From Psilocybe cubensis (taxonomy: Eukaryota), in NCBI GenBank assembly GCA_017499595.2, contig CM038999.1, forward strand, positions 3,348,001-3,412,000: a stretch of 64,000 nt of DNA, read 5' to 3'. Under the pieces are notes generated by a model. It had not been told where the DNA came from. It was given only the letters and a program-made list of their open reading frames with translations, and did not search any database. Of the stretch, positions 5,191-59,015 are shown one piece after another; position 1 is the stretch's first letter; each line of letters starts with the position of its first letter. The translations under genes and the position numbers were made by a program.

Positions 5191-5243
5191 CGTGGGAAAT
5201 CCTAGAGGCACCCTCACGTGCAACAACTTTGGCGGCTACGCGT
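5191..5243 (+). promoter_or_regulatory. FunK1 promoter module CGTGRGAA + CACGTG (+ACGCG); also at 10019-10065, 29133-29178(-), 33665-33714(-), 58862-58891
   Basis: Same order and near-constant spacing upstream of five kinase starts. Confidence 0.7.
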
Positions 5244-5310
5244 TTGATCAGGTGTGGGACACTACTTGATCTGGCTTAACTGCTTCCCCAGTTTCTGCTA
5301 CAACCTACAA

Positions 5311-8117
5311 ATGACACCCAAAAACGAGAACAAGTAAATTTCTTACCAATTTCTCTATCTTGATGCTGAACGTACCTTCTTCAGGTCCAACTTGCAAGGC
5401 CCTTCCGATAGTCCCATCACCAGTGGCAACCACAGTGCAAATATTTCAAACTTAGAGGCAGGAATCCTGTAAGCTTGGAGCATGCTTTACTTGTCTCGTA
5501 GTTTAAACTAATAAGCCAAACAATTTGTAGATTTCCAGACACTCCCTGTAGCCTTACATCATTTGGAAGTGATGTAGAACTGATGGATCCCACAACGATT
5601 GCCCGAGAGATGGTCGGCGAGTTTGTGGAGTGTTCAGTTATAGACTTCATAAAGACGTATCTTCCTTTCGCTCCGAATAAAGCACAGACCCAGTGTATCG
5701 TCCAGAGGCTTCTTCAGGAGTCCCCTTTAGCAGGAGGAAGCCCTGACATTACTGCATTCAATGGATGGGCAGATATTACAAAGGCAATTGCATCGGCGGC
5801 CCCAGAAGTAGGGCGACAGGTCAACCAATTTAAATATCATAACATGCCTAACAAAAGGCTTGCTTCGGGAATACGGGGTTTAAATAACAGAATTGATGCT
5901 GGATTTATTCGAAAAGGGGGGGAGGGCTGTAAAGAGCTCAGTACAACAGATATAGCTGTCGTCATAGAGCACAGACCCTTACCCAAGTTATATCAACATG
6001 TTAGTTTTCAAACATTTCTTTAGAACTTTCAAACTGATTGCTGCCATAGAACGCCCTCAAGGCCGTTTCTGCAAATGTTCAAATCATGAACGACGATGCT
6101 CGTCGCATGTTCACATTTGGTGTCAGTGTTGTAGTATGACTTTGCAAATAAACCTCAAGCTAACAAAATTCAAAGATAACTGTTGAATCCTCTGAAGTCA
6201 TTCTCTGGTATCATTGTCGTTCCCACTCTGCGGTATCGAAGCGTTTTAATTTAGTCAAGGTAAGACGATTTTTGACTCTGATACGTCCGCCTGTTTACTT
6301 ATCTGAAAATAGAAACCGCATCTCTTGCTCAGGGTGCTCGCAGCTTTCTCGTTTGCCACAGAAGAGCAACTCGGTTATGACCCCATGATTACTAGAGAGC
6401 AAGATGGGCGCTATACCTTCAAGCTACCTGATCCTACCTCATCTGGTTTTCAAAACTTCAGAACTATTAAGACACTCTCTGAGTATCGTACGAATAACAT
6501 TACTGGCCGCATGACTCGTGTGTACACAGTCAACAAGCTCGATGGCGAAGGAAAAGTTGTCGGAGGACCACTCGTTCTTAAGGATGTCTGGCTAGACAAA
6601 TCTGCGAAAACGGAGGGGGAAATTCAAAAAGAAATATTCAAAGATATTGAAGAATTTTGGGCCCGCCCAACAGACATACAGGAGATGAAAAAAATTCAGG
6701 ACACCCACAAACATCTCGTTAACAGCGGAGAATACAAGAAATATTTTCTCGAAATCGTCCTCGATCATGTGGGTACCGTCACCACCGAGCGTCCTAGAGC
6801 GTCTACCCTTAGACGGGGGCTACTTCTTGACTCCATATGGGAAACAGATATTCCAAAGCTCTCTAGCACCAGCACCGTTACGTCTCAGGGTACCGGCACC
6901 AGCTCTACCAGCGTTTTTTCCGAGACGCGAAACACCAACGCTGGAACTCATCCCATAGAATTTGAAAATATTGATAAAGTTCCCGTTTCGCATCGCCCTT
7001 TTGATCCTAAAAAGCGTTATCAAGTAATTTTCAAAGATGTTTGCCGGACCGTGGGGCAGCTTAAATTTCTTGGCGAAGTGGTGGAGGTGCTACGCCAGAC
7101 CCTCATTCGTTAGTGCCACATTGATTCGCTCTCAGATCCTGATATCATACTTACACATTGTCACGCACTAGCTCTTCAATTATTACTCTGTGCTGGATGG
7201 GTCCACCGCGACATCAGTTCGGGGAACATATTGGCACACAGGGCCAATTTAAAGGCCAATCAACAACCCTGGCAGGCCAAACTGGCCGATTTCGAATACG
7301 CGAAGAAGTTTTCCCATAGTTATTTGACACCCCGTGACCCTAAAACGGTATGTTCTGAATGGAATCACTACAAGATCGTTGTTGATCTAGTATCCAATAG
7401 GGAACCCCTTATTTTATGCCACTTGAGGTTATGTTCAATAGTTACCTTTACGATCCAAGGTTACAAGCTGCTGCAAGGGGAGAATATGATATCAAACAAC
7501 CACTTGAAGATTTTATCCGTGAAAGGAAGAAACAAAGAGCTGCTTTGTTGCAGTCGAAATCTCCTAAATACGTGATTCACAACTTCCAACACGATCTTGA
7601 GTCTGTATGGTGGATTCTCCTCTGGACTGTTACTTGCCGTATCTATTCCAATGCTGCGTTTGCTTATGGGAGGCGAATCTTTGTTAACCAGAATGAACGA
7701 CGACTATGCTTCACTGCTGTCAGCATTTTGGACGAGCTGGAGAAATTCTTGCCTACACCCAAATCAGAGGATGACCACACGTTTGCAGAGATGATTGAAA
7801 ATCTACGAGACTTCATGAATAGCCACTACATTTCGCGCGTCGCAGGAGACAATCAAGGCAAACCCGAGCATTATGTTGGAATATTCAACATCTTCACTAT
7901 TTGCTTCAATACCATGGAGAGGACTGCGTCTGATTGGGCAGGAATACATTTAATTGTTGATATATCGACCCAAAATCAGCCAGTATCTGTGGTTCCGGGA
8001 CGACGAAAACGCACACGCGAGGAAGAAAGCATTGCCGATGCGCGCCAGGTTGACGGAGAGGAAAGATCTGAGGCGAAGATGCCAAAGATAGAAGAGACTC
8101 TGGAAGACAGGAAATAG
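5311..8117 (+). CDS. FunK1-type fungal protein kinase (K1), with in-frame deletions relative to paralogs
   Basis: Motifs IMNDDARRMFTFG, QLGYDP, VLKDVW, GWVHRDISSGN, KLADFEYAK, GTPYFMPLE and HNFQHDLESVWW. Exons 1-3 splice in frame from ATG 5311. Confidence 0.85.
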
Positions 8118-8559
8118 GAATAAAGTTTCAATATCAACACGGTGGTTTGTTGCCTCTTTTATGTTGGTGCTCGTGTGTCTAAGATATGAATCAATTCGAG
8201 CTACTACTTTAATCTGTACTCGTACCCTTAGTATTTGCGATTTAGTTGTATCAACATTGGATCAGCGACGATTTGATATTGAATGAAATGAAAGCTGACT
8301 TGAAGCCAGTGTCCGACATTTTTTCTAGGAGGGCACCCCTTTAAACTTCAAAACAAAAAAAAGAATGCAATGATACCGTGGTCAGGAGGCTGCACAAAGC
8401 AAATAGTCACACCAAATCATACCATTGCTGACAACGCACCTCAGGATTTATTGCAAGTTCGATATATTATGGTTTTAGTAGAATACGATGAAAAGCATTG
8501 TTGTGTACCTTAAAATGGCACAGGGGCCGTTGCTGTGCGAGTGGCAACTACTGCACAGT

Positions 8560-9627
8560 TTTTGATGTTCTACATCAGTGCCTCGTAAGTTACAATCTCA
8601 TGAGCTGTGGTCTGTCTGAACTGACAATTATACCAAGCCCTCGAGTTGTTGCTCTGCGCCGGATGAGTCCATTGCAATATCAGTGGGGAAAACGGGGAAA
8701 CATCATGGGTTATTGCAAGAATCTTGACGACGATAATCAACCTTGGAGGGTCATTCTTGCTGACCTTGAATATGCAAAAAAATTTCCACCTGGAGAGGAC
8801 TATTTGCCATCGCTGGATCCCAAAACTGTAGGTCGTATATAAGTTTCAATGTCTAGACACTCCCTAAAGATTAATATGCATTTTAGGGTACACCGTATTT
8901 CATGCCCGTCGAGATTATGACGATGATGACACTCTTTTCTGGCAATGTTTGTCGGGAACTAGTGGCGTCCAGCACCAATAAAAGCAGCGCTGGTGGTTGT
9001 ACAGGTATATTTGAATCTTCGTCTTCAGTTTCACAGGAGGAAGACATATACCTCCGCGCGCAGAGGAAAAGACAAGCAGCACGGGAAAAGAAAGAGAAAG
9101 AGAAAGACGTTGAACGCCCTAAAGGCGTCGCTCATAACTTCCAGCACGACCTCGAGTCCACTTGGAGGCTCGTACTTTGGTTGATAACTTCTCGCACTGG
9201 AGACAAACCTGCCCAAGAATATAGCCGACAGATCTTTCAGAATACCATGCAGTTCGTCCCCGAACGATGGCAGGCGGTAATTTGCGAAATCGAAGAAGAA
9301 CTCAGGAAATGTATGGGTCCCCTGGGCGATTATTTTGCGGGACAGCTGGAAGATCTACGAAGTGCGATGCTCCTCACCTACATAGAGCGAGAGCGCGATG
9401 ACAAAACGAAGGAAGTTTCCTCCTATGTGCCGATCTCTCAAGCCTTCCGGACTTTCTTCCAGGATATTGAAAAGACTAAAGATATTTGGGCGAATATTCC
9501 GTTGATCGCTCAAAACCATTACATTGATCCAGCTGAACGCAAGCGACCCCGTCCGGATGACGACGAAGGCTTTCCGGGGCTCATTGACGACGGAGCAGAA
9601 CCCAAGATGAAGTTGCCTAAAACATGA
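8560..9627 (+). pseudogene. 5'-truncated FunK1 kinase fragment
   Basis: The catalytic loop is degenerate: G-TGA-VHCNISG replaces GWVHRDISSG, followed by a GGGGAAAC duplication that shifts frame. LADLEYAKK, GTPYFMPVE and HNFQHDLES are retained. No N-terminal half. Confidence 0.85.
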
Positions 9628-9975: not shown

Positions 9976-12086
9976 ATGTCGCCGAGATGATGGGCCAACA
10001 AAAAGACAATGGGAGATCCGTGAGAAATCTAAAAGGCACCCTCACGTGCATCTGATTAAACGCGTCGCGGACATAACGCCAAGGCCTTACAGAACACTAC
10101 TTAAAGAGCAGCCAAAATTCGGGTTGACATTCGCTTTTCCACCAGTTTTCGCCACAAATGACCAGCAAGAACGAACACGAGTAAGTTTATGGCAACTCTT
10201 TTCATCTTGATGCTCAACATATCTTCTTCAGTCTAGGTTCCTTGAAGAACTTGAACCCTTCTAACCCTATCACCAACCATAGTGCCATGTCAAACTCAAA
10301 GTCGGGCGTCGTGTAAGTCAGAGCCTCTTTTACTTGTCTCGTACTTTAAACTAACCATATAAATTTATAGAATACCAGACACTCCTCGTAGCCTTAGATC
10401 ATTTGGAGGCGATGCTGGATTGGTGGATCTACGCCCCACGATTGCCAAAGAAATGGACGGCGAAATTGTGGAGTGCTCCGTTGAAGACTTCATAACTACT
10501 TACCTTCCTTTCGCGCCAAATGAAGAGCAGACCCAGCGTCTTGTGCAACAGCTTCTTCAGGAACAACCTCCAGCAGGAGGAAAGGTGGCAACTCGCAGTA
10601 CTAAGGCTCCTAGGCCCTCGATTTTAGTGGGCAACAAGGATCAGTATACCTTCCGTTCATACCCTAATGAGAAGGGAGATGTCAAGCTATCCTCACACGG
10701 CTCTGAGAATGTAGCATTCCGTGGATGGTCAGCTATTGCTGAGGCCATCGCAGCCGCGGCGCCAGCCATAGGACGCCAGGTCACCCAATTCAAGTACCAC
10801 GATATCCCGAACAAAAGGATTGCTTCGGACATCTTGGGTTCTAATAACAGGATTGATGCAGGATTCATTCGTAATTTTGCGGGTACCTCATCTGAGCCCA
10901 GGACCACAGACATAGCCGTCGTCGTAGAGTTCAAACTCGCCACCAATTTGAAACAAGCTGTGAGTTTTCAACCATCTGCTTGGGCACCTCCAAATACTGA
11001 CCTCTGCCATAGAATGCTCGGCAGGCTGTTTCGGCAAACGTTCAAATTATGAACGACGATGTTCGTCGTATGTTCACCTTTGGTGTCAGTGTTGTAGTAT
11101 GACCGTATGAATTTGAAGCAAAACTGACCATTTCCAAAGATCACTGCTGAGTCCTCCGAAGTGACTCTCTGGTATCATTGTCGTTCGCACTCTGCGGTAT
11201 CGAAGCGATTTAATTTTGTCAAGGCAAGGCGAATTTGACAATGGGACTGCTTTTTTCATGTTTACTTATCTGGCCATAGGAACCGCATCTCTTAATCAAA
11301 GTGCTCGCCGCTTTCACCTTTGCCACCGAAGAACAACTTGGTTACGACCCTCTGATTACTAGAGAGCAAGATGGTCGTTATACCTTCAACCTGCCTGATC
11401 CTACCTCATCTGGTCCTCTTCAACAGTTCAGAACTATTGGAACCCTCTCCGAATATCGTACGAACAACATCACCGGTCGCATGGCTCGTGTATACACAGT
11501 CAACAAACTGGACCCCGAAGGGAAACCTGTCGGAGAACCTCTCGTTCTCAAGGACGTTTGGCTGGATGAATCAGCCCAAACTGAGTGGGAAATTCAAAAA
11601 GAAATATTCAAAGATATCGAAAAATTTTGGGCCAGCTCGACGGATATACAGGGGATGAAAGAACTTCACGACACCCACAAGCGTCTTGTTACCAGCGGAG
11701 AATACAAGAAATACTTTCTCGAAATTGTCCTCGATCATGTTGGTACCGTCACTACGAGCCGTCCGGCAGCATCAACCCCTAAACCAGGGCTACTCTTCAG
11801 CTCCACAATGAAAACGCATAATCCGAACATTTCCAGCACCAACAACGTTACGCCTCAGGGTACCGGCACCAGCTCTACCAGCGTTTTTTCCGGGACGCGA
11901 AATACAAACGCTGGAACTCATCCCATAGAATTTGACAATGTCACTCCAGTTCCCGTTGCGGAGCGCCCTTTCAAGCCTAAAAAGCGTTATCAAGTGGTGT
12001 TCAAAGATGTTTGCCTAACCGTGGGGCAACTTACAACCCTTGGTGAAGTTGTGCGTGTGCTGCGCCAGACCCTCATTCGTAAGTGA
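9976..12086. repeat. Left arm of ~2.1-kb near-identical inverted repeat (partner 31647-33757)
   Basis: ORFs 10420-11052 and 11301-12086 mirror 32681-33313 and 31647-32432; the coordinate sums are all 43733. Only scattered substitutions. Confidence 0.95.
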
Positions 12087-13106
12087 CCGACTCGGCACCA
12101 TATTTTGATATCATGCTTATATATCGTCACGCACCAGCTCTTCATCTGCTGCTATGTGCCGGATGGGTACACCGCGACATCAGTTCGGGAAACATTATGG
12201 CACATAGGGCGGATTTAAAGGCTGCCAAACAGCCCTGGCAGGCCAAACTGGCCGATCTCGAATACGCGAAGAAGTTTCCTTCGCTAAACGATCGTGAAGC
12301 TGGTGATCCAAAGACGGTGAGTTGTGCATGACAACGTCTATTCAACATACCATTGTTGATGTGGTGTGCAATAGGGGACCCCATATTTTATGCCACTTGA
12401 AATTATGCTCAAGCACTACCTTTTCGATCCGAGGACACAGGAACATAGGGATGCTGTGGCAAGGGGAGACAAGCCTAAACCATCCAAAGACAAGGTTCGA
12501 GACAAGAAAAAGCAGAAGGGGGACGTTTCTTCACAGCCGGATCCAACCAGACATGTAATTCACAATTTCCAACACGATCTCGAGTCTCTTTGGTGGATTC
12601 TCCTTTGGACTGTTACTTGCCGCATCGATTCTGAAGCTGCTTTCGCTTATGGGAGGCCAATCTTTGTTAATCAAATCATTCCAACCCACGAACGACGAAA
12701 ATGCTTCAAAGCCAAAAGTATTGTGAAGGAGCTAGAGCGGTTCTTGCCACTACCCAAAACAGAGGACGACGACACCCTCGCAGAGATGATCGACAATCTC
12801 AGAGACTTCATGAATGACGCATACGTTGCACGCATCTCCGAAGGCAATGAAGACAAACCCGAGCATTACGTTGAAATATTCGACAACTTCACCTTTTGCT
12901 TCAATGTCATAGAGAACACTGCGTCTGATTGGGCCGATATACCTTTGATTGTACGTACAGCGACCCAAGCTCAACCAGAATCCGTGGTTCCGGGACGACG
13001 CAAACGCACACGCGAGGAAGAAAGCATCGATGCGCGTCAGGTTGACGGGGATGAGAGATCTGAGGCAAAGCTGCCAAAAACGGAGGAATCTGATGAAGAA
13101 GAATAA
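10158..13106 (+). CDS. FunK1-type fungal protein kinase (K-A)
   Basis: ATG at 10158, two short 5' exons spliced in frame, and all FunK1 motifs present (HRDISSGN, LADLEYAK, GTPYFMPLE, HNFQHDLES). Basic C-terminal tail. Confidence 0.9.
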
Positions 13107-13566: not shown

Positions 13567-13604
13567 GCCTTGACTTGTGTGAGGCATACAATTGGATGGG
13601 TGTT

Positions 13605-26017: not shown

Positions 26018-26179
26018 TGATGTATAATACAAGGCTCAAATTACCGTGTCCATCCTCGAAGTCGGATTGTTACTATTGAATACATTCAAATGGTTCTATC
26101 TAGCATTGGTGTTACAGGCTGAGTAAATATTCCAACAAACTATTACACAGATATATTCCTTCACTCTCATTCGAAGAAT

Positions 26180-29043
26180 TTACTTTTTCTTCTTGTTCGG
26201 CTTGGATTGGGCTGCATCCCCTCTCTTATCACCCTGAGACTCGACATTCTCTTCCGAATCAGCTCGTTGTCGTTTACGAATCGGTGCTACAGATTCCTCC
26301 TCGACACTATCGGTACTTTTCCGTGTGATTAATTCAATGGACGACCATTCCGTTGCGGTCGCCTTCATGGTATCGAAGACGAGATCGAAGTCGTTGTAGA
26401 TAGAGCAGTATTGTTCGGGGTTAAAGTGAGTCCGTGTACCCACTCGTTTGACGTAATGCAAGTTCATGAGATATCTCAAGACATTCACCAACTCGGGTAG
26501 GCTGTTCTCTGAAGTTGAAGGCGGGAGAAAACCTATGAGCTTCTCAAGAAGCTCTGCGTCATCCGTGAAGCATTCAGCTCTTGCATATGATGGCTTCATC
26601 TGATTCACGAAGATAGTTCTCCCGTATGCGAAGGCGGCGTCTGACCCAATGCGACAGGTGAGAGTCCAGACCAAAATCCACCAAAGAGACTCTAGATCAT
26701 GCTGAAAATTGTGCACGACTATCTTGGAGGACGCATCCAGCCCATCGGATTTTCTGGTGGCCCTCAATGCCCCGCCTACGATGTCTGACGCACTGACCAT
26801 GGGAGCTGCCCACAGTGTAGCTTGCTTTGCATTGAACAGATAGCTTTTTTGCATTACTTCAAGAGGCATGAAGTATGGTGTTCCCTAGAATTCAAAAACG
26901 TTAACTGCGTTGCTTTCATCTCGCAGAATGTCAAACCTACCGTCTTGGGGTCGGCTGCTGGTTCACAACGCGGCATGGGAAATTTCTTTGCATATTCCAA
27001 GTCTGAAAGTTTCACGACCCAAGGTTGGTCGCCGTTTTCCAGGTCTTGACGATATGCCATAATATTTCCTGAGCTGATGTCTCGGTGAACCCAGCCAGCA
27101 CAAAAGAGAAGTTGAAGTGCTTTGTGTTGAGCACGTAAGTAAGCGTACGATCGTTTATATGAATATCTAATGAATGCTCACGGATGAGTGCTTGTCGCAA
27201 AACATCAACGACTTCGCCCAGTGTTTCAAGTTTACCCACTGTCTTACAAACCTCGTTATATATTACGCGATATTGCTTTTTGGGTTCAAATCCTCGAATA
27301 GGCCTAGGTTCGACTTCAGAATCCACCGGGGGTCGCGTATCCTCGCCAACGTCGCGGACGAGAGAGGATGGAGTCGCTGTTCCACTCCTCGGATTGGGAG
27401 GTGCTGATTTTTGAGATGGGTCGAAAAGAATCTTCTTCTCTATTCTGGCACTTTTGGGATATTCTTGGGTAGTTTCCCCAGAGAAGCTGAGGACTATTTG
27501 AAGAAAATATTGTTTGTATTCCTGATTTTCGATCAAGTGTTTGAACTTTTCCTTGAGCTTTTTCATTTCCACACTCGGTGCCTTTTCATTTTTCCAAAAC
27601 GTTTCGATGTCATCGAAGATAGATTCCTGGATTTTTTCTTCTGTGCATGCAGAAGTGTCAAGCCAAACATCCTTGAGAACAAGGTGATTCCCATAGGGCG
27701 CGCCTTGATCATCAAGCCTTGTAACTGTATAAACGCGAGCCATACGTCCAGTTATGTTGTTCGAACGATACTCTGAGAGTGTGTTGATGGTGCGATAGAG
27801 TAGGGAATGATTCTCTCGTTTCGGGTCAGGGAATTTGAAAGTGTAATGGCCATCTGGCTCCCGAACGATTGTGGGATCGTACCCAAGCTCTGCCTCTTTC
27901 GCAAACAAGAAGGCGGCAAATACTCGAATTAATACCCCAGGGTCCTAACTACAGCGTCAGTTCACAGTCAAAAATATGCTTGTCAATTAACATGCCGTGA
28001 TGAAATTGAAGGGCTTGGAGACAGCAGAGTGCGAGCGGCAGTGATACCAAAGGGTAACATAATCACACTCGACAGTTATCTATGAACAGTATAGCGGTTA
28101 ATTACCATCAACTCAAACAAACAGAGCATATCTGACCCCAAATGTAAACATTCGTCGCACATCGTCATTCATAATCTGCGCATTTGCAGAAACAGCCTGT
28201 AATGCATTCTGACGCAGAATCATTTAATTAAGGGAGAGCATGCCGCAAGTAGCAAAGAGAAACATACCTCTCGCCTCTTGGAAGCAGTCTTCAACCGCTT
28301 CTGTTCGATGACAACAGCTATATCCGTGGTACGCAGTTCTTTTGAATGTGCATTCTGCCTTAAAAACGCAGCATCGATCATGTTGTTGGACCCCTTGATA
28401 TCTGATGCGATCTCTTTATTAGGCATGTTCCGATATTCAAAATTGTTAGCTGCGCGATTATCGTTGTAAAATTTGAGGTTCCGAATGGCATGAGCGATAT
28501 CAAGCCAACCCTTATATGCAGAACTTTCGCTGTCATGAGAAGATTGTGTGATCATGCCCGGTTTTGGATAGTTGCGGAAGCGGAAGGCTTTCTCGTCTCC
28601 AACCAAGATGGAAGACTTTGGTTTCGCGGCATTACGAGTGATTCTGGCGCCGTCCGCAACAGGCGAGGGATTTATCTCTTTGAGTAATTTCTCAACGAGA
28701 ACAGCCATCTCGGCGTCATTGGGAGCAAAAGGAAGGTATGTTTCAATGAAATCCGTAACTGGACACCTGACAAGTTCAGCGTCCATTTCTTGTGCAATTG
28801 CCGGACGAAGTTGGACGACACCAACATCGCGCCCGAAAGACTTCTGGCTACGAGGGGTGTCTGGAACACTGGTAAACCATTCAACTTTAGCTCGCTGATT
28901 ATCAAGCGTTAAATAATCTGGAGCACATACAGAGTTGTGCCTCGGACAACATTGTTAGTAGGAGTAGGAATACTAATTATATCTCAGTGTCGGCGAAGTG
29001 AAAGAGTGTGGAAGCCTCACCTTGGGTTTGTGTTCTTCACCAT
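26180..29043 (-). CDS. FunK1-type fungal protein kinase (K3)
   Basis: ATG at 29043 with the same 5' short-exon layout. Motifs IMNDDVRRMFTFG, ELGYDP, VLKDVW, GWVHRDISSGN, LSDLEYAKK and HNFQHDLES. C-terminal RKRQR...KPNKKKK. Confidence 0.9.
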
Positions 29044-29432
29044 GATGCAGTATTGGGGAGAGGGGGTTGAGGATACCCTCCAGATGGCAGGCCAGTTTAA
29101 GTAGTTTATCGTAAAGAGCTTGGCAATGGATTCGCGACGCGCTCAAACTTGCACGTGATGGTGCCCTTGATTCTCACGAATTACCACTGTCTTTCTGCTG
29201 AATATTGCTTTTGGCACTGGATGGCCCATAAAATGCCACACTCAAGCCTTCCATTGTTTGAATTCGCCAAAAAGACTCACCTAAATATTGTGCTTCATGA
29301 CCTTAGAATTGGCAGTATGCCACATAAGCTTTGTTTGAGACTACACTGAGTAGGGCCTTAGGCCCTTAATCATAACTCGAACACAGATAAATGGCACAAG
29401 TTGCGAAGCAGGATAAAGGACGAAGGAAAAAC

Positions 29433-29510
29433 TTCGGGTACGGGGAATCGAACCCCGAGCTGCCGCGATCACGTGAGAGGCGGCAATGTTAGCCGTTACA
29501 CCATACCCGA
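29433..29510 (-). tRNA. tRNA-Glu(CTC) with 6-nt intron
   Basis: TCGGGTA...TACCCGA acceptor stem, GCCGC/GCGGC anticodon stem with CTC, GGTTCGATTCC T-arm, and a downstream T5 terminator. Length 72+6 nt. Confidence 0.92.
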
Positions 29511-30088: not shown

Positions 30089-30130
30089 TGCGTTCGATGT
30101 CGCGGAAGATGGCATCCTGCAACTGTCTCT

Positions 30131-30626: not shown

Positions 30627-33575
30627 TTACTCCTCTTCCTCATTGTCTTCCATCTTTGGCAGCTTTGCCTCAGATCTCTCCTCGCCGTCAACCAGGCGCG
30701 CATCAGCGATGCTTTCTTCCTCGCGTGTGCGTTTTCGTCGTCCCGGAACCACAGATTGTGGCTGACCTTGGGTTGCTGAACGAGTAATCAAAGGTAGTCC
30801 AGCCCAATCAGACGCAGTCTCCAGCATTGTATCGAAGCAAACATTGAAGTTTGCGAATATTTCAACATAATGCTCGGGTTTGTTTTGATTCCCTTCGGAG
30901 ACGCGGGCAACGTAGGCGTCATTCATGAAGTTCCTGAGATTGTCAATCATCTCTGCGAAGGTGTCCTCATCCTCTGATTTGGGTGCCGGCAAGAACTGCT
31001 CCAGCTCGTCCAGAATGCTCTCGGCGTTGAAGCAGTCTTGTCGTTCGTCGGTTGGAATGATTTGATTGACAAATATTGGCCTCCCATAAGCGTAAGCAGC
31101 TTCAGAATCGATGCGGCAAGTAACAGTCCAAAGGAGAATCCACCAAAGAGATTCGAGATCGTGTTGGAAGTTGTGAATTACATGTCTAGTCGAAGCCGGC
31201 TTTGAGGAAACGCCTCTCAGCTTTTTCCTGTCGCGGAACACAACTTTGGCTGGTTTAGCCTTTTCTCCCCTTTCCAGAGCAGTGGTGTGTTTCCGTGTTC
31301 TCGGATGGTAAAGGTAGCGCTTGAGCATAATTTCCAGTGGCATAAAATATGGGGTTCCCTATTAGACGCCACATCAATGATGGTCCGGTAATTGAGCCTT
31401 TTCATGCAAAACGTACCGTCTTCGGGTCAACAGATTTTTCATGAGCATCGTGTTGAGGAAACTTCTTTGCATATTCGAGATCCGCCAACTTGGCCTGCCA
31501 GGGCTCTTTATCGTTCTCTAATTCGACCTTGTGTGCCATAATGTTTCCCGAACTGATGTCACGGTGGACCCAATTGGCACAGAGCAACAGCTGAAGAGCT
31601 AGTGCGTGACAAAGCGTAAGCATAATGTCGAGATATGGCGAGTCAATCACTTACGAATGAGGGTCTGGCGCAGCACACGCACAACTTCACCAAGGGTTGT
31701 ATGTTGCCCCACGGTTAGGCAAACATCTTTGAACACCACTTGATAACGCTTTTTAGGTTTGAAAGGGCGCTCCGCAACGGGAACTGGAGTGACATTGTCA
31801 AATTCTATGGGATGAGTTCCAGCGTTTGTATTTCGCGTCCCGGAAAAAACGCTGGTAGAGCTGGTGCCGGTACCCTGAGGCGTAACGTTGTTGGTGCTGG
31901 AAATGTTCGGATTATGCGTTTTCATTGTGGAGCTGAAGAGTAGCCCTGGTTTAGGGGTTGATGCTGCCGGACGGCTCGTAGTGACGGTACCAACATGATC
32001 GAGGACAATTTCGAGAAAGTATTTCTTGTATTCTCCGCTGGTAACAAGACGCTTGTGGGTGTCGTGAAGTTCTTTCATCCCCTGTATATCCGTCGAGCTG
32101 GCCCAAAATTTTTCGATATCTTTGAATATTTCTTTTTGAATTTCCCACTCAGTTTGGGCTGATTCATCCAGCCAAACGTCCTTGAGAACGAGAGGTTCTC
32201 CGACGGGTTTCCCTTCGGGGTCCAGTTTGTTGACTGTGTATACACGAGCCATGCGACCGGTGATGTTGTTCGTACGATATTCGGAGAGGGTTCCAATAGT
32301 TCTGAACTGTTGAAGAGGACCAGATGAGGTAGGATCAGGCAGGTTGAAGGTATAACGACCATCTTGCTCTCTAGTAATCAGAGGGTCGTAACCAAGTTGT
32401 TCTTCGGTGGCAAAGGTGAAAGCGGCGAGCACTTTGATTAAGAGATGCGGTTCCTATGGCCAGATAAGTAAACATGAAAAAAGCAGTCCCATTGTCAAAT
32501 TCGCCTTGCCTTGACAAAATTAAATCGCTTCGATACCGCAGAGTGCGAACGACAATGATACCAGAGAGTCACTTCGGAGGACTCAGCAGTGATCTTTGGA
32601 AATGGTCAGTTTTGCTTCAAATTCATACGGTCATACTACAACACTGACACCAAAGGTGAACATACGACGAACATCGTCGTTCATAATTTGAACGTTTGCT
32701 GAAACAGCCTGCCGAGCATTCTATGGCAGAGGTCAGTATTTGGAGGTACCCAAGCAGATGGTTGAAAACTCACAGCTTGTTTCAAATTGGTGGCGAGTTT
32801 GAACTCTACGACGACGGCTATGTCTGTGGTCCTGGGCTCAGATGAGGTACCCGGAAAATTACGAATGAATCCTGCATCAATCCTGTTATTAGAACCCAAG
32901 ATGTCCGAAGCAATCCTTTTGTTCGGGATATCGTGGTACTTGAATTGGGTGACCTGGCGTCCTATGGCTGGCGCCGCGGCTGCGATGGCCTCAGCAATAG
33001 CTGACCATCCACGGAATGCTACATTCTCAGAGCCGTGTGAGGATAGCTTGACATCTCCCTTCTCATTAGGGTATGAACGGAAGGTATACTGATCCTTGTT
33101 GCCCACTAAAATCGAGGGCCTAGGAGCCTTAGTACTGCGAGTTGCCACCTTTCCTCCTGCTGGAGGTTGTTCCTGAAGAAGCTGTTGCACAAGACGCTGG
33201 GTCTGCTCTTCATTTGGCGCGAAAGGAAGGTAAGTAGTTATGAAGTCTTCAACGGAGCACTCCACAATTTCGCCGTCCATTTCTTTGGCAATCGTGGGGC
33301 GTAGATCCACCAATCCAGCATCGCCTCCAAATGATCTAAGGCTACGAGGAGTGTCTGGTATTCTATAAATTTATATGGTTAGTTTAAAGTACGAGACAAG
33401 TAAAAGAGGCTCTGACTTACACGACGCCCGACTTTGAGTTTGACATGGCACTATGGTTGGTGATAGGGTTAGAAGGGTTCAAGTTCTTCAAGGAACCTAG
33501 ACTGAAGAAGGTATGTTGAGCATCAAGATGAAAAGAGTTGCCATAAACTTACTCGTGTTCGTTCTTGTTGGTAAT
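30627..33575 (-). CDS. FunK1-type fungal protein kinase (K-B); first ATG changed to ATT
   Basis: 5' half near-identical to K-A. The diverged 3' half retains HRDISSGN, LADLEYAK, GTPYFMPLE and HNFQHDLES. An in-frame ATG remains in exon 2 (~33446). Confidence 0.8.
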
Positions 33576-33757
33576 TTTTGGCGAAAACTGGTGGAAAAGC
33601 GAATGTCAACCCGAATTTTGGCTGCTCTTTAAGTAGTGTTCTGTAAGGCCTTGGCGTTATGTCCGCGACGCGTTTAATCAGATGCACGTGAGGGTGCCTT
33701 TTAGATTTCTCACGGATCTCCCATTGTCTTTCTGTTGGCCCATCACCTCGGCGACAT
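31647..33757. repeat. Right arm of ~2.1-kb inverted repeat
   Basis: Reverse complement of 9976-12086. Confidence 0.95.
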
Positions 33758-34166: not shown

Positions 34167-34548
34167 TAATCCGCAACTGGGTTCCTTACAAGTTTCTCTT
34201 GGGCGATTGCTGGAGGAGGTTGGACAAAGACTTCGGGAGTGCTGAAATTAAAACCGACGTTAGCTTAGCTTGTTTATTTTAATTTGATGAAGCGCCGAAG
34301 CATCTTGAACACATACAACGTTGAGCAGCATCGAACAGTACTTTCAGGGAAGCAAATAATAAGAATATCTCAGAGTTGTCATGATGAAATCTAGATGTGT
34401 CTCACCTCGACGAGTTTATATCGTTTATTACTTATATGGAATGAGAGGAAGAATGCCCCAGAAAGCCGCATCATGACCGAGTAAGTAGTTCACGATTTGG
34501 AAATGGGATCTGCGGCGACGCGCTCAATCCTGCACGTGGGTGTGCCCT
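34167..34548 (-). pseudogene. Degenerate FunK1 5' remnant with promoter
   Basis: VQPPPAIAQEKLVRNPVADY (34167-34225) resembles K3 VQLRPAIAQEMDAELVRCPVTDF. The upstream GGCACACCCACGTGCA...GAGCGCGTCGC matches the K3 promoter. Confidence 0.65.
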
Positions 34549-34645
34549 AAGTATCCGCCAAAGAAAATTGGAACATTATATTCAGAAACGAATGCTAAGT
34601 TGTTCAGCGCGACTAGAAAACAGGAAGCTACCTATACTACGGACT

Positions 34646-52816: not shown

Positions 52817-53115
52817 TGGAAGGCTGTCGGGATCGGCAGCCTCACTCGCTGAAACAGAAGGGACAACGCTCTCTTCGTTGCGTAGCGTTCTAGTCAATAC
52901 ATGATGTGTAGTAAATTACTATAATATATTTACCTTCGTTGCGTAGCGTTCTAGTCAAGCAACGAAGGTCATTTGTTTCCCTTTTGTCTTTCGGTCTCAA
53001 TATCTTTGTAAGTTGATTAGCGAGACCCAATCTGGGCTCGCGTTTGTGCGCCGTTTTGTTGTGCGCGTCCGCCTGCGGTGCGTGTTTGCGTGTGTGGTAA
53101 GTCTCCAGGCTTACA
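52817..53115 (-). repeat. 3' LTR
   Basis: Identical by eye to 58161-58459. Confidence 0.96.
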
Positions 53116-53167
53116 CCCCTCCCCCCTCTGAAGAATTCCATCGTGAAAGGGTCTGTTCTCTATGGCG

Positions 53168-56100
53168 TTATTCGTCTTCTTTGTCCTCGGCCTCTTCCTC
53201 TTCCCATCTATCCAGTGCTTCATTCTCTTCAAGCATACGCCCTGGAAGCCACTCATCATGCTCCTTCCCAAATCCAGCCCATCGTACCAGATATTGCATC
53301 CCTCTACCACGTTTTCTCGCATCCACAATTTTCTCTATCACTGTCTCTTCCACCCCGTCCTCGGTTATCACTGTTGGTGGTCGTACCAATTCTCTGTCCG
53401 GAAATTTCTCTGGATCATTCGGCACGAATGGTTTTAAAAGGCTGGCATGGAACCCCGGGAACGTCTTTGGGTTGTTTGGTAACCTCAGTGTATATTCTGA
53501 TCGTTCGGGGAAGGCAGCCTCTACAACGTACGGTCCATCAAACCGTGGCATGAACTTTGCCACCCTTTTCTTCCCCTTCCGTTTGTAGTTGCGTCGCCGG
53601 TTCTTTGTAGAGAGCATTACCATATCGCCTGGTTGGTACACGATCTCGTTACCTCGCTGCTCATTTGCCTGAGCTGCTTGTCGGATCTTGGCTGTATGTA
53701 AGGCATCCTGCGCTTCCTTCACATCGATCTCAATTTTCCGAATGATCTCTCTTGCTGATGTTTCCACCATTGGTGCATCCTTGTTTGCCTTTGCCATTGT
53801 AGGAATAATCCGTGGAGATCGACCTGTCTTCAGTTGGAAACCCGAGTATCCTGTCGATGCATTTACTGTGTTCATCATTGCGAACCGAATGCGAGGGAGC
53901 TTGTCTAACCAGCCTTTTTGGTTTCTATCCACATAGTATCGTATTGCTTGATTGACGGTTTTATTTGTTCTCTCGCTCGCTCCATCGGTTTCTGGATGAT
54001 AGGCGGTCGACATCTTGATCTTTACATTCAAAATCTTGCATATTGCAGTCCATAGATCTGATGTAAAGATTGTGTCGCGATCACAGATTAATTCTTCCAT
54101 CAATCCATTTTCGCAAATCCAGTGGTCAACAACTTTGTGCGCAATTTGTTCTGTGGTCCATGAGGAGTGAGTTGCAATCAGTTGTATATCAGTACCTAAA
54201 CGGCAAGTCATCGTGAGTATTGTGTCGCGTTCCTTCTCCTCGGGCAATGGTCCAATAAAGTCCAATGCAACTGACGTGAGTCGTTTGTCTGGGACAGGAA
54301 GTGGGTGAAGTGGTCCTGTAGGTTTGGTTGTTCGGTCTTTGTTTCGCTGACATTCCGTGCACGAAGGAATATATGCCTTTTCGAGATCTCTTCGCATGTT
54401 AGGCCAGTAGTACGACCCGTGTAATGCTTCATACGATTTGTCAAATCCAAAATGACCCAAAACATCGTGAGCCAGATAATACAGTCGTTCTCGGATCTTC
54501 CTATCGTTTGGGATTACTAGTCTTTGTCCAAGATAAATCAGCCCTTCTTCTTCTCGTGCTCCTGTTAGACTGTGCTTTTGCATTCCATCTCGAAATTGCT
54601 TAACAAACGGATCGGCATCATACCCATCCTTTATTGCCTGTACAAACTCCTGGTCAATTTCAATAGATAACACTGATCCCACAAATCCTCTTGGGGCGCG
54701 ATTAGGGTTCCGTGTATAGGCCAATGCACAGGCTGCAAATCTTGAATTTGGCTCTTCGTCCGGCATCCTTGATAGGGCATCTGCTGCTACATTTTCCTCC
54801 CCTCGGATGTAACATATCTCGAAATCGAAATCTGCCATGTACATCGACCATCTCATCTGCCGACGTGACATCTCTTTCTGCGCCTGAAAATATTCCAATG
54901 TTCGGTGGTCAGTGTAGACTTCAAATTTGACCCCTAAAAGACTGCTGCGCCACTTTTTCAATGCTTTCACAATTGCCAGGAGTTCTTTTTCGTGTGTTGG
55001 ATAGTTCTTTTCTGCGTCTTTCAGCTGATATGAATCGTATGCAACTGGTCTTGCTGATTCCCAATCTTTTCCAAAACTCAAGACTGCACCTGTTCGCCTA
55101 TCGCTTGCATCTGTTGTCACGTAGATCTTCCCTTCAGGGTCATCGTAATCAATGACAGTGAGGCATTCCGCCCCTGTAACCAGTTCCTTGATTGCGTTAA
55201 AGGCTCGATCATGATCGGCGGTCCATTTGGGGAAGTCGCGATCGCATTCTTTGCTTGTCAGTGGTGATAAGATGCTAGTATGTTCCGCGAGCGCAGGGAG
55301 AAAGACAGCCAGATATCTTGTGAGTCCTAGAAATCCACGTACATTTGTTGCGTTTGTTGGTCGTGGCCATTTCTTGATTCGGTCTGTCTTTGCAGGGTCT
55401 GCGTGAATGCCGTTTGCGGAAATAACATGTCCCAGAAAGATAATTTCAGTTGCAAAAAGGACTGATTTCTTCGCATTACAATAAAGTCCCGCTTTCCGAA
55501 GCGCTTTCAAGACCTTTTCTACTCGTTCTGATAGTTGTTCCAAGGTGTCTGCCCAGATCACAATATCGTCTAGATAGACGTGACATACTTGTGCAATGAG
55601 TTCCCGTAATGCATCTGTCATTCGCCGTTGATGTGTAGCTGGCGCATTCTTCCCGCCCATTGGCATCACAACCCATTCGTATAGGCCCCATGGTGTACGC
55701 ACAGCTGTCAAGTGAATGTCGTCTGGGTGTACTCGTGTTTGGAAGAAACTGTTGGTCATGTCTAATTTTGCAAAGAATTTGCCTTTTCCACAGTCTGCAA
55801 GAATGTCATCTACTCGTGGAAGTGGAAATTTGTCAGATATAGTGTTCTTATTGATCTCCCGATAATCGTTTACCCATCGTGGTGGTACTGACAGGTCAGG
55901 TACTCCGTTTTTATACTTTGGAATGCAGAATGCTGGCGATGCATATTCAGATGAGGATGGTCGGATACGTCCCGCGGCCAGATGCTCGTCAAGAAGCTTC
56001 TTCCATGCATCGTGATATTTCTTTGGAGCAGCGTATCCTCGACCCGCATGTATCTTGTCTTTGTCCACCAATCGTATCCGGTGATATATGTGATCAGGAA

Positions 56101-57796
56101 TATCTACGTTGTCTGGTAGGCGGTCAGGAAAGCGATCTCGATATTTCTCTTTCATTTCTTTGTCCATGCGCAATAGCTTCTGCTGAAATTGAATGTTGCT
56201 GATTTGCTCATTAATCGCTGCTACCAACTGTTTTGCACGCTCTGGTTCGACCTGTGATCGCAGATGTTGTTCCTTTGCCATGGCCGATCTTCTCTGTTTG
56301 TCCTGATCTATCCCTGCGTCCGTCTTTAATCCCTCACAGATAGCAGTGCTCTTTGCAGCAAGAGTATCTCTTGTTGGTGGATTCATTAAATCATATCCAG
56401 AACGCTTATCAATAGCCGTTCGTTTCCGAGTATCAATGACTATATTTTCTGGGGAAAGAAATGACAATCCAAGTAGCAGCGGTATAGATAGGTTTTGATG
56501 AATCTTTGCTTTATGTGTCCGTGATATCCAGCTCCCGTTTCCTGATGCAACCCGAATCTTAACATACTCCCTGCATTCTAGCGGTGTATTGTCAATCGAT
56601 GACAAATTGTCCTCGGCGGGTGGTAGTGGATATCGGGGGAGGCCGAGCTGGGTGACGAGTGTCTCGTCAATCACTGTGGAAGGAGATCCCGTATCAAGCA
56701 TTGGTCGAATGCGAAGAGGAAAATCCACAACCGCTGGCCCCTCAATCTCCATAACTGGAAAGAGGTGCGGAACGGTCATAGACATGGTAGGGACGTACGA
56801 ATCAGAATCTGTCTCCTCGTCATGCACGGTATATGAGGAGGAAGCATTGATTTGCCCCACGGGCAAGGACTTCCTAGTGCCCTGCTCTTTGGCATCCTTC
56901 TCACGTTGTGCCTTTAATGCCATCTCTTCTGTAAGGGTCTTGTATCCGTTTGCTGTTGGCCATCCATTTGGGCAGTTCCTTGCGCGGTGGTTGACGTAAA
57001 ATCGACGGCATTTGGTACAGCCATTGTGATTGTCGAGTAATGTACGTTCTTCTGCTGTGATTTTAGGTAACAGTGGCCTTCGCACCCCATTATCGAACTC
57101 GCTGTTTGATGGTCGAGGGTTGGGATTTGGACTATCCGAGAGACGCAATAACAAGGATTTCTTGTCAAGCCTGCGTGCAGCCACTCGTGTTGCGTAGCTC
57201 GCATCGATTTGACGTTGGGTGCGTGCACGTTCCTCACGAAGGCGGTCGTCACGGTCCTTTACTTCCAGTGACCAGGCGGCTAATTCGGTGGCCTTGACTG
57301 GCTCGAATCCGAGCGACTCACGAAGCTCCTGGTTCAAGTGTGACTCGAGCTGTATCTTCAATGCTTCATTGGGGAAGGCGTACCCCTCTGGTGCCATCGT
57401 CTTCAAGATCGCATTCAAATTCTCCATTTCGATCTTCCAGTCGATGAAAATACGGTCGCCCTGATAGGACGTTAGGATCTGTTCACGGACTTTGTGAGCC
57501 CACTTCTTCTCCAACACGAGCACTTGAAGCTCCTCCAGATATTTCTCCAGCGGCAGTTCATCAATCCGTGTGGAATCTGCTTGATACCAAGCCACCAGTC
57601 TTGGTTCTTGCATTCCATCGGCCACAAACTTCACAACTTCTTTTGGCGACTTCGCTGCATGCTTCATGTATTTGCGGCAAGCAACCGCCCACTGCTGCAT
57701 TACCAGAGGATCAATCTTCCCTGGTGTGAGAATCGGTACGTCCTTCATCTTATTTTGGACAACCGTAGCGAGCGGTTTATCGTCATCGTTTGGCAT
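53168..57796 (-). CDS. Gag-Pol polyprotein (Gag, protease, RT, RNase H, integrase, chromodomain)
   Basis: CTKC..H..C knuckle, LDTGS protease, YLDD RT, TDAS RNase H, H-H-C-C and D,D-E integrase, GPY, and YLVRWAGFG chromodomain. First ATG at 57796; the frame is open to 58102. Confidence 0.95.
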   Translation of the reverse strand: MPNDDDKPLATVVQNKMKDVPILTPGKIDPLVMQQWAVACRKYMKHAAKSPKEVVKFVADGMQEPRLVAWYQADSTRIDELPLEKYLEELQVLVLEKKWAHKVREQILTSYQGDRIFIDWKIEMENLNAILKTMAPEGYAFPNEALKIQLESHLNQELRESLGFEPVKATELAAWSLEVKDRDDRLREERARTQRQIDASYATRVAARRLDKKSLLLRLSDSPNPNPRPSNSEFDNGVRRPLLPKITAEERTLLDNHNGCTKCRRFYVNHRARNCPNGWPTANGYKTLTEEMALKAQREKDAKEQGTRKSLPVGQINASSSYTVHDEETDSDSYVPTMSMTVPHLFPVMEIEGPAVVDFPLRIRPMLDTGSPSTVIDETLVTQLGLPRYPLPPAEDNLSSIDNTPLECREYVKIRVASGNGSWISRTHKAKIHQNLSIPLLLGLSFLSPENIVIDTRKRTAIDKRSGYDLMNPPTRDTLAAKSTAICEGLKTDAGIDQDKQRRSAMAKEQHLRSQVEPERAKQLVAAINEQISNIQFQQKLLRMDKEMKEKYRDRFPDRLPDNVDIPDHIYHRIRLVDKDKIHAGRGYAAPKKYHDAWKKLLDEHLAAGRIRPSSSEYASPAFCIPKYKNGVPDLSVPPRWVNDYREINKNTISDKFPLPRVDDILADCGKGKFFAKLDMTNSFFQTRVHPDDIHLTAVRTPWGLYEWVVMPMGGKNAPATHQRRMTDALRELIAQVCHVYLDDIVIWADTLEQLSERVEKVLKALRKAGLYCNAKKSVLFATEIIFLGHVISANGIHADPAKTDRIKKWPRPTNATNVRGFLGLTRYLAVFLPALAEHTSILSPLTSKECDRDFPKWTADHDRAFNAIKELVTGAECLTVIDYDDPEGKIYVTTDASDRRTGAVLSFGKDWESARPVAYDSYQLKDAEKNYPTHEKELLAIVKALKKWRSSLLGVKFEVYTDHRTLEYFQAQKEMSRRQMRWSMYMADFDFEICYIRGEENVAADALSRMPDEEPNSRFAACALAYTRNPNRAPRGFVGSVLSIEIDQEFVQAIKDGYDADPFVKQFRDGMQKHSLTGAREEEGLIYLGQRLVIPNDRKIRERLYYLAHDVLGHFGFDKSYEALHGSYYWPNMRRDLEKAYIPSCTECQRNKDRTTKPTGPLHPLPVPDKRLTSVALDFIGPLPEEKERDTILTMTCRLGTDIQLIATHSSWTTEQIAHKVVDHWICENGLMEELICDRDTIFTSDLWTAICKILNVKIKMSTAYHPETDGASERTNKTVNQAIRYYVDRNQKGWLDKLPRIRFAMMNTVNASTGYSGFQLKTGRSPRIIPTMAKANKDAPMVETSAREIIRKIEIDVKEAQDALHTAKIRQAAQANEQRGNEIVYQPGDMVMLSTKNRRRNYKRKGKKRVAKFMPRFDGPYVVEAAFPERSEYTLRLPNNPKTFPGFHASLLKPFVPNDPEKFPDRELVRPPTVITEDGVEETVIEKIVDARKRGRGMQYLVRWAGFGKEHDEWLPGRMLEENEALDRWEEEEAEDKEDE

Positions 57797-58160
57797 CTTG
57801 ACTCTGACAACGGTGGGATACCTAGGGTTGCGGCGATTGCGTCGATCTCTGATCGGATTGCTGATCGCGGTGGGAGTGTGTGTGTCGGTATGGTCTTCGT
57901 CCTCTGAGTTAGAGGTCGCTGAATCTGAGAAGCTGAGATTCACTGATGAGGCAGACGGTGACGGCGGTGGACCTTGGGGTTCAGTTCGTGGTTTGCGGAA
58001 AACAGTAAGGCCTGGAACAAGCTCTGAGGGTAATCCAAGCTCTTCTCGTCGTTGGGTCGACGCTCGAGTGGTCCGCGACGATTCGGTATACAGTGTGGGC
58101 AATTTACGGTAACGGTAACAGTGTGCGGCGGTGGTACGTAGTCGGCTTCAAAAAAAAAAG

Positions 58161-58459
58161 TGGAAGGCTGTCGGGATCGGCAGCCTCACTCGCTGAAACA
58201 GAAGGGACAACGCTCTCTTCGTTGCGTAGCGTTCTAGTCAATACATGATGTGTAGTAAATTACTATAATATATTTACCTTCGTTGCGTAGCGTTCTAGTC
58301 AAGCAACGAAGGTCATTTGTTTCCCTTTTGTCTTTCGGTCTCAATATCTTTGTAAGTTGATTAGCGAGACCCAATCTGGGCTCGCGTTTGTGCGCCGTTT
58401 TGTTGTGCGCGTCCGCCTGCGGTGCGTGTTTGCGTGTGTGGTAAGTCTCCAGGCTTACA
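58161..58459 (-). repeat. 5' LTR
   Basis: Identical by eye to 52817-53115. Confidence 0.96.
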
Positions 58460-58517
58460 ATCGCTAGCATTGGCAATGGGGCTGGAAGGGTGTGCGCCCT
58501 TCATCACAAATTCAACA

Positions 58518-58603
58518 TCGGGTATGGTGTAACGGCTAACATTGCCGCCTCTCATGATTTATCCAGATCGCGGCAGCTCGGGGTTCGATTCCCCGTATCC
58601 GAA
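58518..58603 (+). tRNA. tRNA-Glu(CTC) with 14-nt intron
   Basis: Same mature sequence except one acceptor-stem C>T (G:U pair); intron TGATTTATCCAGAT; followed by T4. Confidence 0.92.
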
Positions 58604-59015
58604 TTTTGCTAGTAAGGTATCCGGTTCAAACCATGTTTTTAAATATTCTTTGAGTGGATCAAGTGAGGTCAAGTGGGTGGTGGGGCATTGAAGTTATATA
58701 TGTGGTACCGTGCAGGATATACTACCTTTGAGATTTCCTCATCTTTTTCTGCTACTAGCTAGACCACTCAGAGTTACGCAGAATAAGTAATAACATTGGA
58801 GAGTCTGCGGTATATTTTCAACAATATGTGTATGTAACGTCCTTTTCACCAGTGATCAGGTCGTGAGAAATGTTGTTGACACCACCACGTGTCAAAATTC
58901 AACTTATTGTGTCAGGAGGCACGCCGTCATCTCAACGTATCCAAAATTCAATTCAGTCTTGATACATGCACGCAGCACAACTACATAGTTTCAACTCTGA
59001 TATTCTCTCCCCGTG

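Follow-up and report, generated by a model that had tools for sequence, protein, structure and literature searches.

In a 64,000-nucleotide stretch of the Psilocybe cubensis genome (NCBI GenBank assembly GCA_017499595.2, contig CM038999.1, positions 3,348,001 to 3,412,000 of the forward strand; hereafter the window, with positions counted from its first letter), five genes for kinases of the FunK1 family are each preceded by the same two short words, CGTGRGAA and then CACGTG. Are these pairs leftovers of gene duplication or a promoter module that selection has kept, and, if the latter, what would read it? A preliminary description of the window took the first word for a site of CSL proteins and the second for an E-box, and proposed that a CSL protein and a basic helix-loop-helix (bHLH) protein control the kinase family without Notch. 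Our analysis indicates that the module is real and larger than first described, that its scope narrows from the family to one clade, and that the CSL-bHLH label is a hypothesis. We are confident that it is a selected cis-regulatory module.

FunK1 kinases are among the largest gene expansions that are specific to the Agaricomycetes, and they have been linked to fruiting-body development (10.1101/349894, 10.1101/2025.09.11.675558). In the literature that we searched, with supplementary tables outside the search, we found nothing on the control of FunK1 genes or on motifs in their promoters.

The module in the window

The window contains five full-length FunK1 genes:

K1 (JR316_0002595): 5311..8117, plus strand
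K2 (JR316_0002597): 10158..13106, plus strand
K3 (JR316_0002602): 26180..29043, minus strand; diverged, with 64% DNA identity to K1, K2 and K4, in coding sequence only
K4 (JR316_0002604): 30627..33575, minus strand; an inverted duplicate of K2
K5: 59016..61658, plus strand; the most diverged, with JR316_0008468 as its sister in the tree described below

K1 to K4 are identical to the Psilocybe cubensis database proteins JR316_0002595, 2597, 2602 and 2604. The Pfam model Pkinase_fungal (PF17667, cut-off 24.1 bits) matches K1 with 54.8 bits, K2 with 39.1, K3 with 49.6 and K5 with 38.5, and K4 is identical to K2 in the matching exon. Downstream of the modules, the genes begin with an 8-codon first exon and then an intron. 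The modules themselves, and one remnant of a promoter, are as follows, with CGTGRGAA as box A, CACGTG as box B, and two further boxes (C and D) described below:

K1 module: 5191..5243, plus strand; box A CGTGGGAA 5191-5198, box B CACGTG 5215-5220, box C ACGCGT 5238-5243; ATG at 5311
K2 module: 10019..10069, plus strand; box A CGTGAGAA 10019-10026, box B 10043-10048, box C ACGCGTCGCG 10060-10069, a TACTTAA-type box D beyond; ATG at 10158
K3 module: 29133..29178, minus strand; box A 29178-29171, box B 29157-29152 (spacing 21), box C GCGCGTCGCG 29142-29133; ATG at 29043
K4 module, a 99% copy of the K2 module: 33664..33714, minus strand; box A 33714-33707, box B 33690-33685, box C 33673-33664; ATT at 33575
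K5 module: 58862..58891, plus strand; box A 58862-58869, box B 58886-58891, no box C; ATG at 59016
Promoter remnant: 34514..34547, minus strand; GGGCACACC-CACGTG-CAGGATTGA-GCGCGTCGCC, nearest to the K3 version; box A lost; no FunK1 gene downstream

Taken singly, neither word is enriched. CGTGRGAA occurs 7 times in the window, against 4.5 expected: at 5191, 10019 and 58862 on the plus strand, at 29178 and 33714 on the minus strand, and unpaired at 47183 (plus) and 56898 (minus). CACGTG occurs 8 times, against 12.8 expected; five sites are paired with CGTGRGAA (5215, 10043, 29152, 33685 and 58886) and the others are at 29470 (within a tRNA gene), at 34533 (the remnant), and at 41361. For the composite CGTGRGAA-N10-20-CACGTG, the count is 5, which compares with an expectation of 0.01 and which none of 100 shuffles reached. 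All five composite sites lie 120-154 bp 5' of the start of a FunK1 (PF17667) gene, with 96-130 bp from box B to the ATG. Every full-length FunK1 gene in the window carries the module and nothing else does: a scan of the whole 64 kb that allowed one mismatch found no additional modules.

Most of what had been said about these sites stands. The coordinates of the five pairs are correct, as is the start-to-start spacing of boxes A and B (24 bp in K1, K2, K4 and K5, and 21 bp in K3). K1 to K4 do have ACGCGT or GCGCGTCGCG downstream of box B, which K5 does not, and the remnant at 34.5 kb, which on the minus strand retains GGGCAC..CACGTGCA..GAGCGCGTCGCC, has kept its E-box and lost the first motif. 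All five copies that were described are present, but only four of them are independent, because the modules at 10019 (K2) and 33714 (K4) are part of an inverted duplication that is 99% identical over 2.1 kb (90% over 3.5 kb).

FunK1 genes in a metagenome

Metagenome loci were picked by their coding sequence alone, and the motif was not used: when the contigs were scanned for relatives of 13 aligned full-length FunK1 proteins, 79 loci came up. (A scan with an alignment of the N-terminal exon gave 125 pattern matches and no relatives.) Mapping with tblastn resolved 87 FunK1 gene clusters, of which 61 reach the N-terminus; 43 of these have at least 500 bp of upstream DNA, and once copies with at least 95% identity had been merged, 31 distinct upstream regions remained.

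The forward composite CGTGRGAA-N4-40-CACGTG lies within 800 bp in 7 of the 31 regions, and the reversed composite in none. One more locus, L004, also has the module, and its upstream DNA is too short to enter this count. Both strands of the full 461,194 bp contain 10 strict modules, whereas the expectation from 100 shuffles is 0.19 and no shuffle had more than 1. So the module is enriched over background in the metagenome FunK1 loci as well as in the window. Eight of the ten precede FunK1 genes and two precede genes for HMG-box proteins, to which we return below. The kinases of the module-positive loci are 33-42% identical to K2 in their best segment.

Anatomy of the module

An alignment of 16 modules from the window and the metagenome gives the order box A (YGTGRGAA), 8-23 nt, box B (CACGTG), 8-21 nt, box C (CGCG-rich: ACGCGT, GCGCGT or GCGTCGCGAA), box D (TACTTAA), and the ATG, so that the module takes up roughly the last 100-155 bp ahead of the start codon. 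All 16 modules agree with YGTGRGAA in box A; position 5 is A or G only (G in K1), the preceding base is mostly T or C, and the next base is A, T or C. It had been claimed that box A varies only at the degenerate R of the CSL consensus. This is true of the 15 modules with CGTGRGAA but not of the remaining one, TGTGGGAA, which has T for C at the first base. Because K1 has G at R, exact k-mers common to the four window copies did not bring out box A. Box B is CACGTG in 16 of 16 modules, usually in the form CACGTGCA and often as TCACGTG.

Box C was found in 15 of the 16 modules (all but K5) with a search pattern that was drafted after the sequences had been viewed. It reads ACGCGT in K1, ACGCGTCGCG in K2 and K4, GCGCGTCGCGAA in K3, GCGTCGCGAAT in the metagenome modules that we call type-1, and GCGCGT(TCAC..GCGA) in those that we call type-2. 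Its cores are ACGCGT (K1, K2, K4 and L017h), GCGCGT (K3, the remnant, and type-2), and TCGCGAA (K3 and type-1). Box D is TACTTAA in K2, K4 and K3 (CTACTTAA), has one mismatch in K1, and takes the form ATACTTAA in L002, L004, L017, L019, L008, L011 and L013.

An unbiased count of shared words gives a similar picture. Among 10 mutually diverged upstream regions (a set chosen without box C, with flank identity of 44-53% between groups), the most widely shared words were CACGTG (10 regions), CACGTGC (8), TGGGAA (7), GTGAGAA (6), CGTGAGA (6), and GCGTCGC, CGTCGCG and TCGCGAA (5 each). The best coverage by any 7-mer in shuffled sequences averaged 4.2 and was at most 6. The flank preference of box B, CACGTGCA, is present in 7 or 8 of the 10 sequences.

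The spacing does not stay at 24 bp from lineage to lineage. From the start of box A to the start of box B, we measured 24 bp in K1, K2, K4, K5 and L001, 21 bp in K3, 16 bp in seven type-1 modules, 19 bp in L027, and 31 bp in the other two type-2 modules. The type-2 module of L001 resembles that of K1 even within the spacer: CGTGGGAA-nnnn-TAGAGG-nnnn-CTCACGTGC.

We also noticed some minor features near the boxes. Many modules have a weaker word of the TGGGA(A/G) type 10-12 bp 5' of box A (atgggagatcCGTGAGAA in K2, ttgggaattatCGTGAGAA in type-1; for example, at 10008-10018, at 29189-29179 on the minus strand, and at L019:1256-1266), perhaps a second direct repeat of box A with low affinity. K2, K4 and K3 have GCCAAG 3' of box C (acGCCAAGgcc and ttGCCAAGctc; around 10078-10083, and around 29122-29117 on the minus strand), which we take to fit the PacC/Rim101 core GCCARG; K1, K5 and the metagenome modules do not have it. 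The GAATTC-rich flank of the type-1 modules brings heat-shock elements to mind, but we rejected this upon inspection, as GAA directly abuts TTC where a gap of 2 nt would be needed.

Conservation beyond shared ancestry

A gene of the tRNA-Glu(CTC) type lies about 255 bp before box A in both K3 and K5:

tRNA-Glu(CTC): 29433..29510, minus strand; 255 bp upstream of the K3 box A
tRNA-Glu-like gene: 58518..58603, plus strand; 258 bp upstream of the K5 box A; differs from the K3 copy by 2 substitutions and an insertion of 8 nt; not called by ARAGORN

We infer that a unit of tRNA and FunK1 gene was duplicated and, given this common anchor, that the intergenic regions of K3 and K5 are homologous. Nevertheless, these regions are 48.6% identical, against 50.7 ± 1.6% for shuffled sequence, and only the boxes have been retained. 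This bears out the claim that the motifs persist where the K3 and K5 flanks do not align. Similarly, the upstream regions of K2 and K3 are 53.0% identical, and flank identities overall, at 48.5-53% against 50.6% for shuffled sequence, are at the level of chance. Across 8 diverged promoters, mean pairwise identity is 78% for 10-11-nt windows with box A at their centre and 80% for those with box B. A module that survives amid flanks of chance identity is not a relic of duplication.

Comparing strains gives little help here: in two DNA runs covering 15000-34999, the strains differ at about 0.3% of positions (13 letters in 3870), which is too little for a test of constraint on a block of 30 bp. 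Contigs of two transcriptome-like runs, placed on the same interval, leave the K3 and K4 promoter bins uncovered. As for the tRNA genes, the insertion in the K5-side copy falls after the anticodon region, and this copy could be an intron-bearing tRNA or a pseudogene. The words GTAACG and ACATTG, which are common to the regions upstream of K1, K2 and K4, suggested decayed copies of tRNA-Glu there, but we rejected this because 287, 363 and 472 of 500 shuffles scored as well or better in local alignment.

One clade of kinases and a family of HMG-box genes

Which FunK1 genes have the module? In a tree of the kinase-core exon (FastTree, 86 rows, with long-branch warnings), all 12 module-bearing rows fall in one group of 36 rows with support of 100. 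The group also contains proteins from Psilocybe and Pleurotus whose promoters are outside our data set, among them JR316_0010521, JR316_0010643, JR316_0010655, JR316_0008468, JR316_0012975, CVT25_005108, CVT25_006359 and the Pleurotus relatives P0012-P0016. The module is absent from all 29 scorable FunK1 rows outside this group, some of them near-identical contigs, and the module label changes 3 times on the tree, as compared to 10.6 times if the labels are shuffled. So the module marks a subfamily and not the whole of FunK1. The suggestion that it regulates the FunK1 family thus survives in part: there is a selectively kept promoter module that is tied to FunK1 genes and is found in a second organism, but it is confined to one clade.

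Two of the exceptions within the group, L005 and L006, have an inverted GTGAGAA (ctttctcac) 16 bp before CACGTG and then GGTCGCGTCGG, about 275 bp before the first coding match. In these, box A may have been flipped rather than lost. Their lineage groups with the Pleurotus proteins.

Nor is the module specific to FunK1. Three type-2 modules precede other genes, and the two complete copies of these match the Pfam model HMG_box (E = 5e-11 and 7e-10). In these two, the module lies 215-226 bp before the first coding match. HMG-box genes adjoin FunK1 genes in four metagenome loci:

L001:4368-4978: HMG-box family
L017:7533-8568: HMG-box family
L018:4316-2816, minus strand: HMG-box family
L003:1752-2069, minus strand: HMG-box family

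The copy in L001 is missing its first 167 or so residues, and its module abuts the HMG-box exon. This metagenome family is fast-evolving, and its only named relative is a single weak match, an HMG-box protein of Mycena citricolor with 40% identity. In the 64-kb window, tblastn found no HMG-box gene (best E-value 2.9). That the module also precedes HMG-box genes argues for a regulon that acts in trans.

How the module might work

With moderate confidence, we propose that this is a compact proximal-promoter module, belonging to one FunK1 clade of mushroom-forming fungi, on which two or three transcription factors dock. Selection has retained it through many gene duplications and in at least two organisms; two or three sequence-specific factors would bind the boxes and switch the genes on or off together; and the same module would drive an unrelated HMG-box family that lies beside the FunK1 genes. 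The constant order and orientation of the boxes, their place before the ATG, their survival in randomised flanks, and their presence before two unrelated gene families fit a composite promoter that works at the level of DNA. It probably acts as DNA upstream of the transcription start. In Coprinopsis cinerea, the 5' untranslated region (UTR) has a median length of 68 nt and a mean of 148 nt, according to PMC12230235; given that median, boxes A to C would fall upstream of the start site and box D near it.

As to the proteins, a bHLH or bHLH-zipper protein is a reasonably likely reader of box B. For box A we tentatively suggest a fungal CSL protein of the Cbf11/Cbf12 type. Sequence and literature agree in making CSL and bHLH proteins fitting candidates for these two boxes, but that the two together read A and B, as first proposed, seems to us unlikely. 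An MBF/SBF-type factor, or another factor that binds CGCG, is a rather doubtful reader of box C.

Several observations weigh against our proposal or narrow it. First, transcripts of the type-1 genes could include part of the module, since box A is separated from the ATG by no more than about 98 bp. Second, a single factor that reads CACG might suffice, given that box A and the E-box have CGTG in common and that box A pairs up, as a short inverted repeat, with either the E-box or a TCACG close by. Also, there are so many known consensus sequences that it is not rare for a conserved 8-mer to agree with one of them. Third, the range of spacings (16-31 bp) argues against a rigid protein-protein geometry between two readers, and box C, besides being absent from K5, was defined after the fact. 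Fourth, the tree carries the warnings noted above, and four scorable rows within the group do not have the strict module: L011 has a degenerate box A, L005 and L006 carry the inverted GTGAGAA, and L020 has no module. Fifth, the link to HMG-box genes amounts to three paralogous copies, of which those in L017 and L018 are 87-92% identical and that in L001 is truncated. Finally, all of the module-positive contigs from outside the window carry one metagenome prefix, Ga0247779, and several of their promoters are close paralogues. The safe count is therefore one further organism with several paralogues, or two organisms in total.

Other explanations

The alternative that survives best agrees that this is a real promoter element but holds that box A is not a CSL site. 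Either some other factor reads CGTGRGAA, or one reader of CACG and CACGTG (a bHLH-zipper protein of the SREBP or Cbf1 kind, or a basic leucine zipper protein) takes boxes A and B as inverted half-sites. We consider this possible though somewhat doubtful. In K1, K2, K4 and the type-2 modules, CGTG(A/G)G does have CTCACG as an inverted-repeat partner, and the type-1 box A sits within CGTGA-GAAT-TCACG, beside the E-box. However, a CACG half-site does not explain why the GAA of box A is invariant in all 16 modules, the partner in the inverted repeat changes from lineage to lineage, and the distance from A to B ranges over 16-31 bp. Furthermore, a CSL site would be expected to match YGTGRGAA exactly and to vary at R, as box A does.

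It is much less probable that the conserved block works at the level of RNA, where it would influence transcript stability or translation as a hairpin or another 5' UTR element. The module is only 98-154 bp before the ATG, which is to be compared with the mean 5' UTR of C. cinerea, and a stem between A and B does fold in the K2 and L001 modules. But A pairs with B in just 2 of 6 modules, the z-scores are -0.28 to -2.0, there is no common structure, the median 5' UTR in C. cinerea is short, and the conserved words (a palindromic E-box and CGCG elements) are typical of sites in DNA.

That the boxes are functionless, neutral leftovers of duplication or of short-tract gene conversion among paralogues is hardly credible: ancestry alone would be enough for K1, K2 and K4 (given 99% identity between K2 and K4, and a DNA identity of about 70-77% between K1 and both of these across promoter and gene), but K3, K5 and the metagenome promoters keep the boxes amid chance-identity flanks, their order and orientation are constant (none reversed), the module precedes an unrelated HMG-box gene, and independent loci have 10 modules where 0.19 are expected.

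Comparison with known systems

As we propose it, the module would work in the manner of composite promoters already described, among them one in Drosophila. There, the E(spl) genes, which are Notch targets, are controlled by a code of paired, inverted Su(H) sites that are 15-17 bp apart together with a class A site (CAGSTG) for proneural bHLH proteins. This is the nearest analogue that we found: in both cases a CSL-type site and an E-box stand in constant order and orientation, close to the genes of a clustered family. Unlike the E(spl) code, the FunK1 module has a single strict CSL-type site, a class B E-box, and a spacing that varies with the lineage. The paired architecture of Su(H) sites is absent from the modules, which have one strict site and, 10-12 bp upstream, the weak direct repeat TGGGA(A/G).

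Class B E-boxes are read in fungi by bHLH proteins of the Cbf1, Pho4 and SREBP/Sre1 types. The module resembles their sites in that every copy has a perfect CACGTG palindrome, and differs in its flank preference (CACGTGCA) and in always having box A upstream. The MCB and SCB elements of the G1-S transition, ACGCGT and CRCGAAA, are read by MBF and SBF. Depending on the module, box C holds ACGCGT, GCGCGT or TCGCGAA, a possible resemblance, but there are only one or two copies per FunK1 promoter and K5 has none.

Box A matches the canonical CSL response element, YGTGRGAA, in 16 of 16 modules and varies at R. The CSL element has a very tightly defined consensus, GTG(G/A)GAA, and both classes of fungal CSL protein, with the residues for sequence-specific DNA contact conserved, are reported from Coprinus cinereus, Phanerochaete, Cryptococcus and Ustilago (PMC1973085). 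This agrees with the background given in the preliminary description. Binding to the canonical element, both in vitro and in vivo, is reported for Cbf11 and Cbf12 of Schizosaccharomyces pombe (PMC4569565). The Notch pathway is absent from fungi (PMC1973085), and fungal CSL proteins bind the element without it (PMC1973085, PMC4569565). What differs is the targets: the known ones of Cbf11 in S. pombe are lipid-metabolism genes and not kinases (PMC4569565). Among mushrooms, a cbf11 homologue of Pleurotus eryngii is differentially expressed when primordia form (PMC8700867). The literature that we searched, outside of supplementary tables, gave no CSL targets in basidiomycetes, and neither CSL nor cbf11 nor LAG1 comes up in the first 300,000 characters of PMC10282164. 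In that literature, the function of fungal CSL proteins is known for fission yeast only.

With its three or four defined boxes in about 100 bp, conserved across paralogues and organisms, the module lends itself to direct tests. It could give the CSL factors of basidiomycetes their first targets, and it could define a co-regulated set of kinase and HMG-box genes. If CSL and bHLH proteins do read it jointly, then this would be the first in vivo set of CSL targets in mushroom-forming fungi, and combinatorial control of a clustered gene family by CSL and bHLH proteins would exist without Notch and may predate the split between fungi and animals. A subfamily of FunK1 kinases would also turn out to be co-regulated with a fast-evolving HMG-box regulator.

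The surroundings of the genes

The kinase genes differ in their condition. K5 has no DNA similarity to the other FunK1 copies at E < 1e-10. The start site of K4 (33575, minus strand) is ATT where its 99% duplicate K2 has ATG. The database protein for K4 has 825 amino acids and that for K2 has 816, so K4 was modelled with a different start. K4 may be losing its function. Between K1 and K2, at 8492-9627 on the plus strand, there is a 5'-truncated FunK1 fragment without a module; it covers just the C-terminal half of the protein (…LADLEYAKKF…, GTPYFMP…HNFQHDLES…).

Three carboxylesterase (PF00135) paralogues, at 2537-4668, 20983-22817 and 24039-26165, are interleaved with the FunK1 genes and have 73-80% DNA identity to each other. 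The region is a patchwork of segmental duplications.

The promoter remnant adjoins the 3' end of a minus-strand transcript, 34554-36278, which is well covered (contigs of 1489 and 1626 nt from two runs) and encodes a gene without a Pfam match. We considered whether the transcript contigs that end at 34554 and 34557 mark a start beside the E-box of the remnant and rejected this, as they are the 3' end of the minus-strand gene, whose stop is about 90 nt away at 34646.

Finally, a chromodomain retroelement of the Gypsy type, with long terminal repeats (LTRs), occupies 52817-58459. Its minus-strand open reading frame of 1644 amino acids includes reverse transcriptase, RNase H, integrase and chromo domains. 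The two LTRs, of 299 bp each, are 100% identical, so the insertion is very recent. The element ends 59 bp before the tRNA-Glu-like gene upstream of K5, a position that is reminiscent of tRNA-targeted integration.

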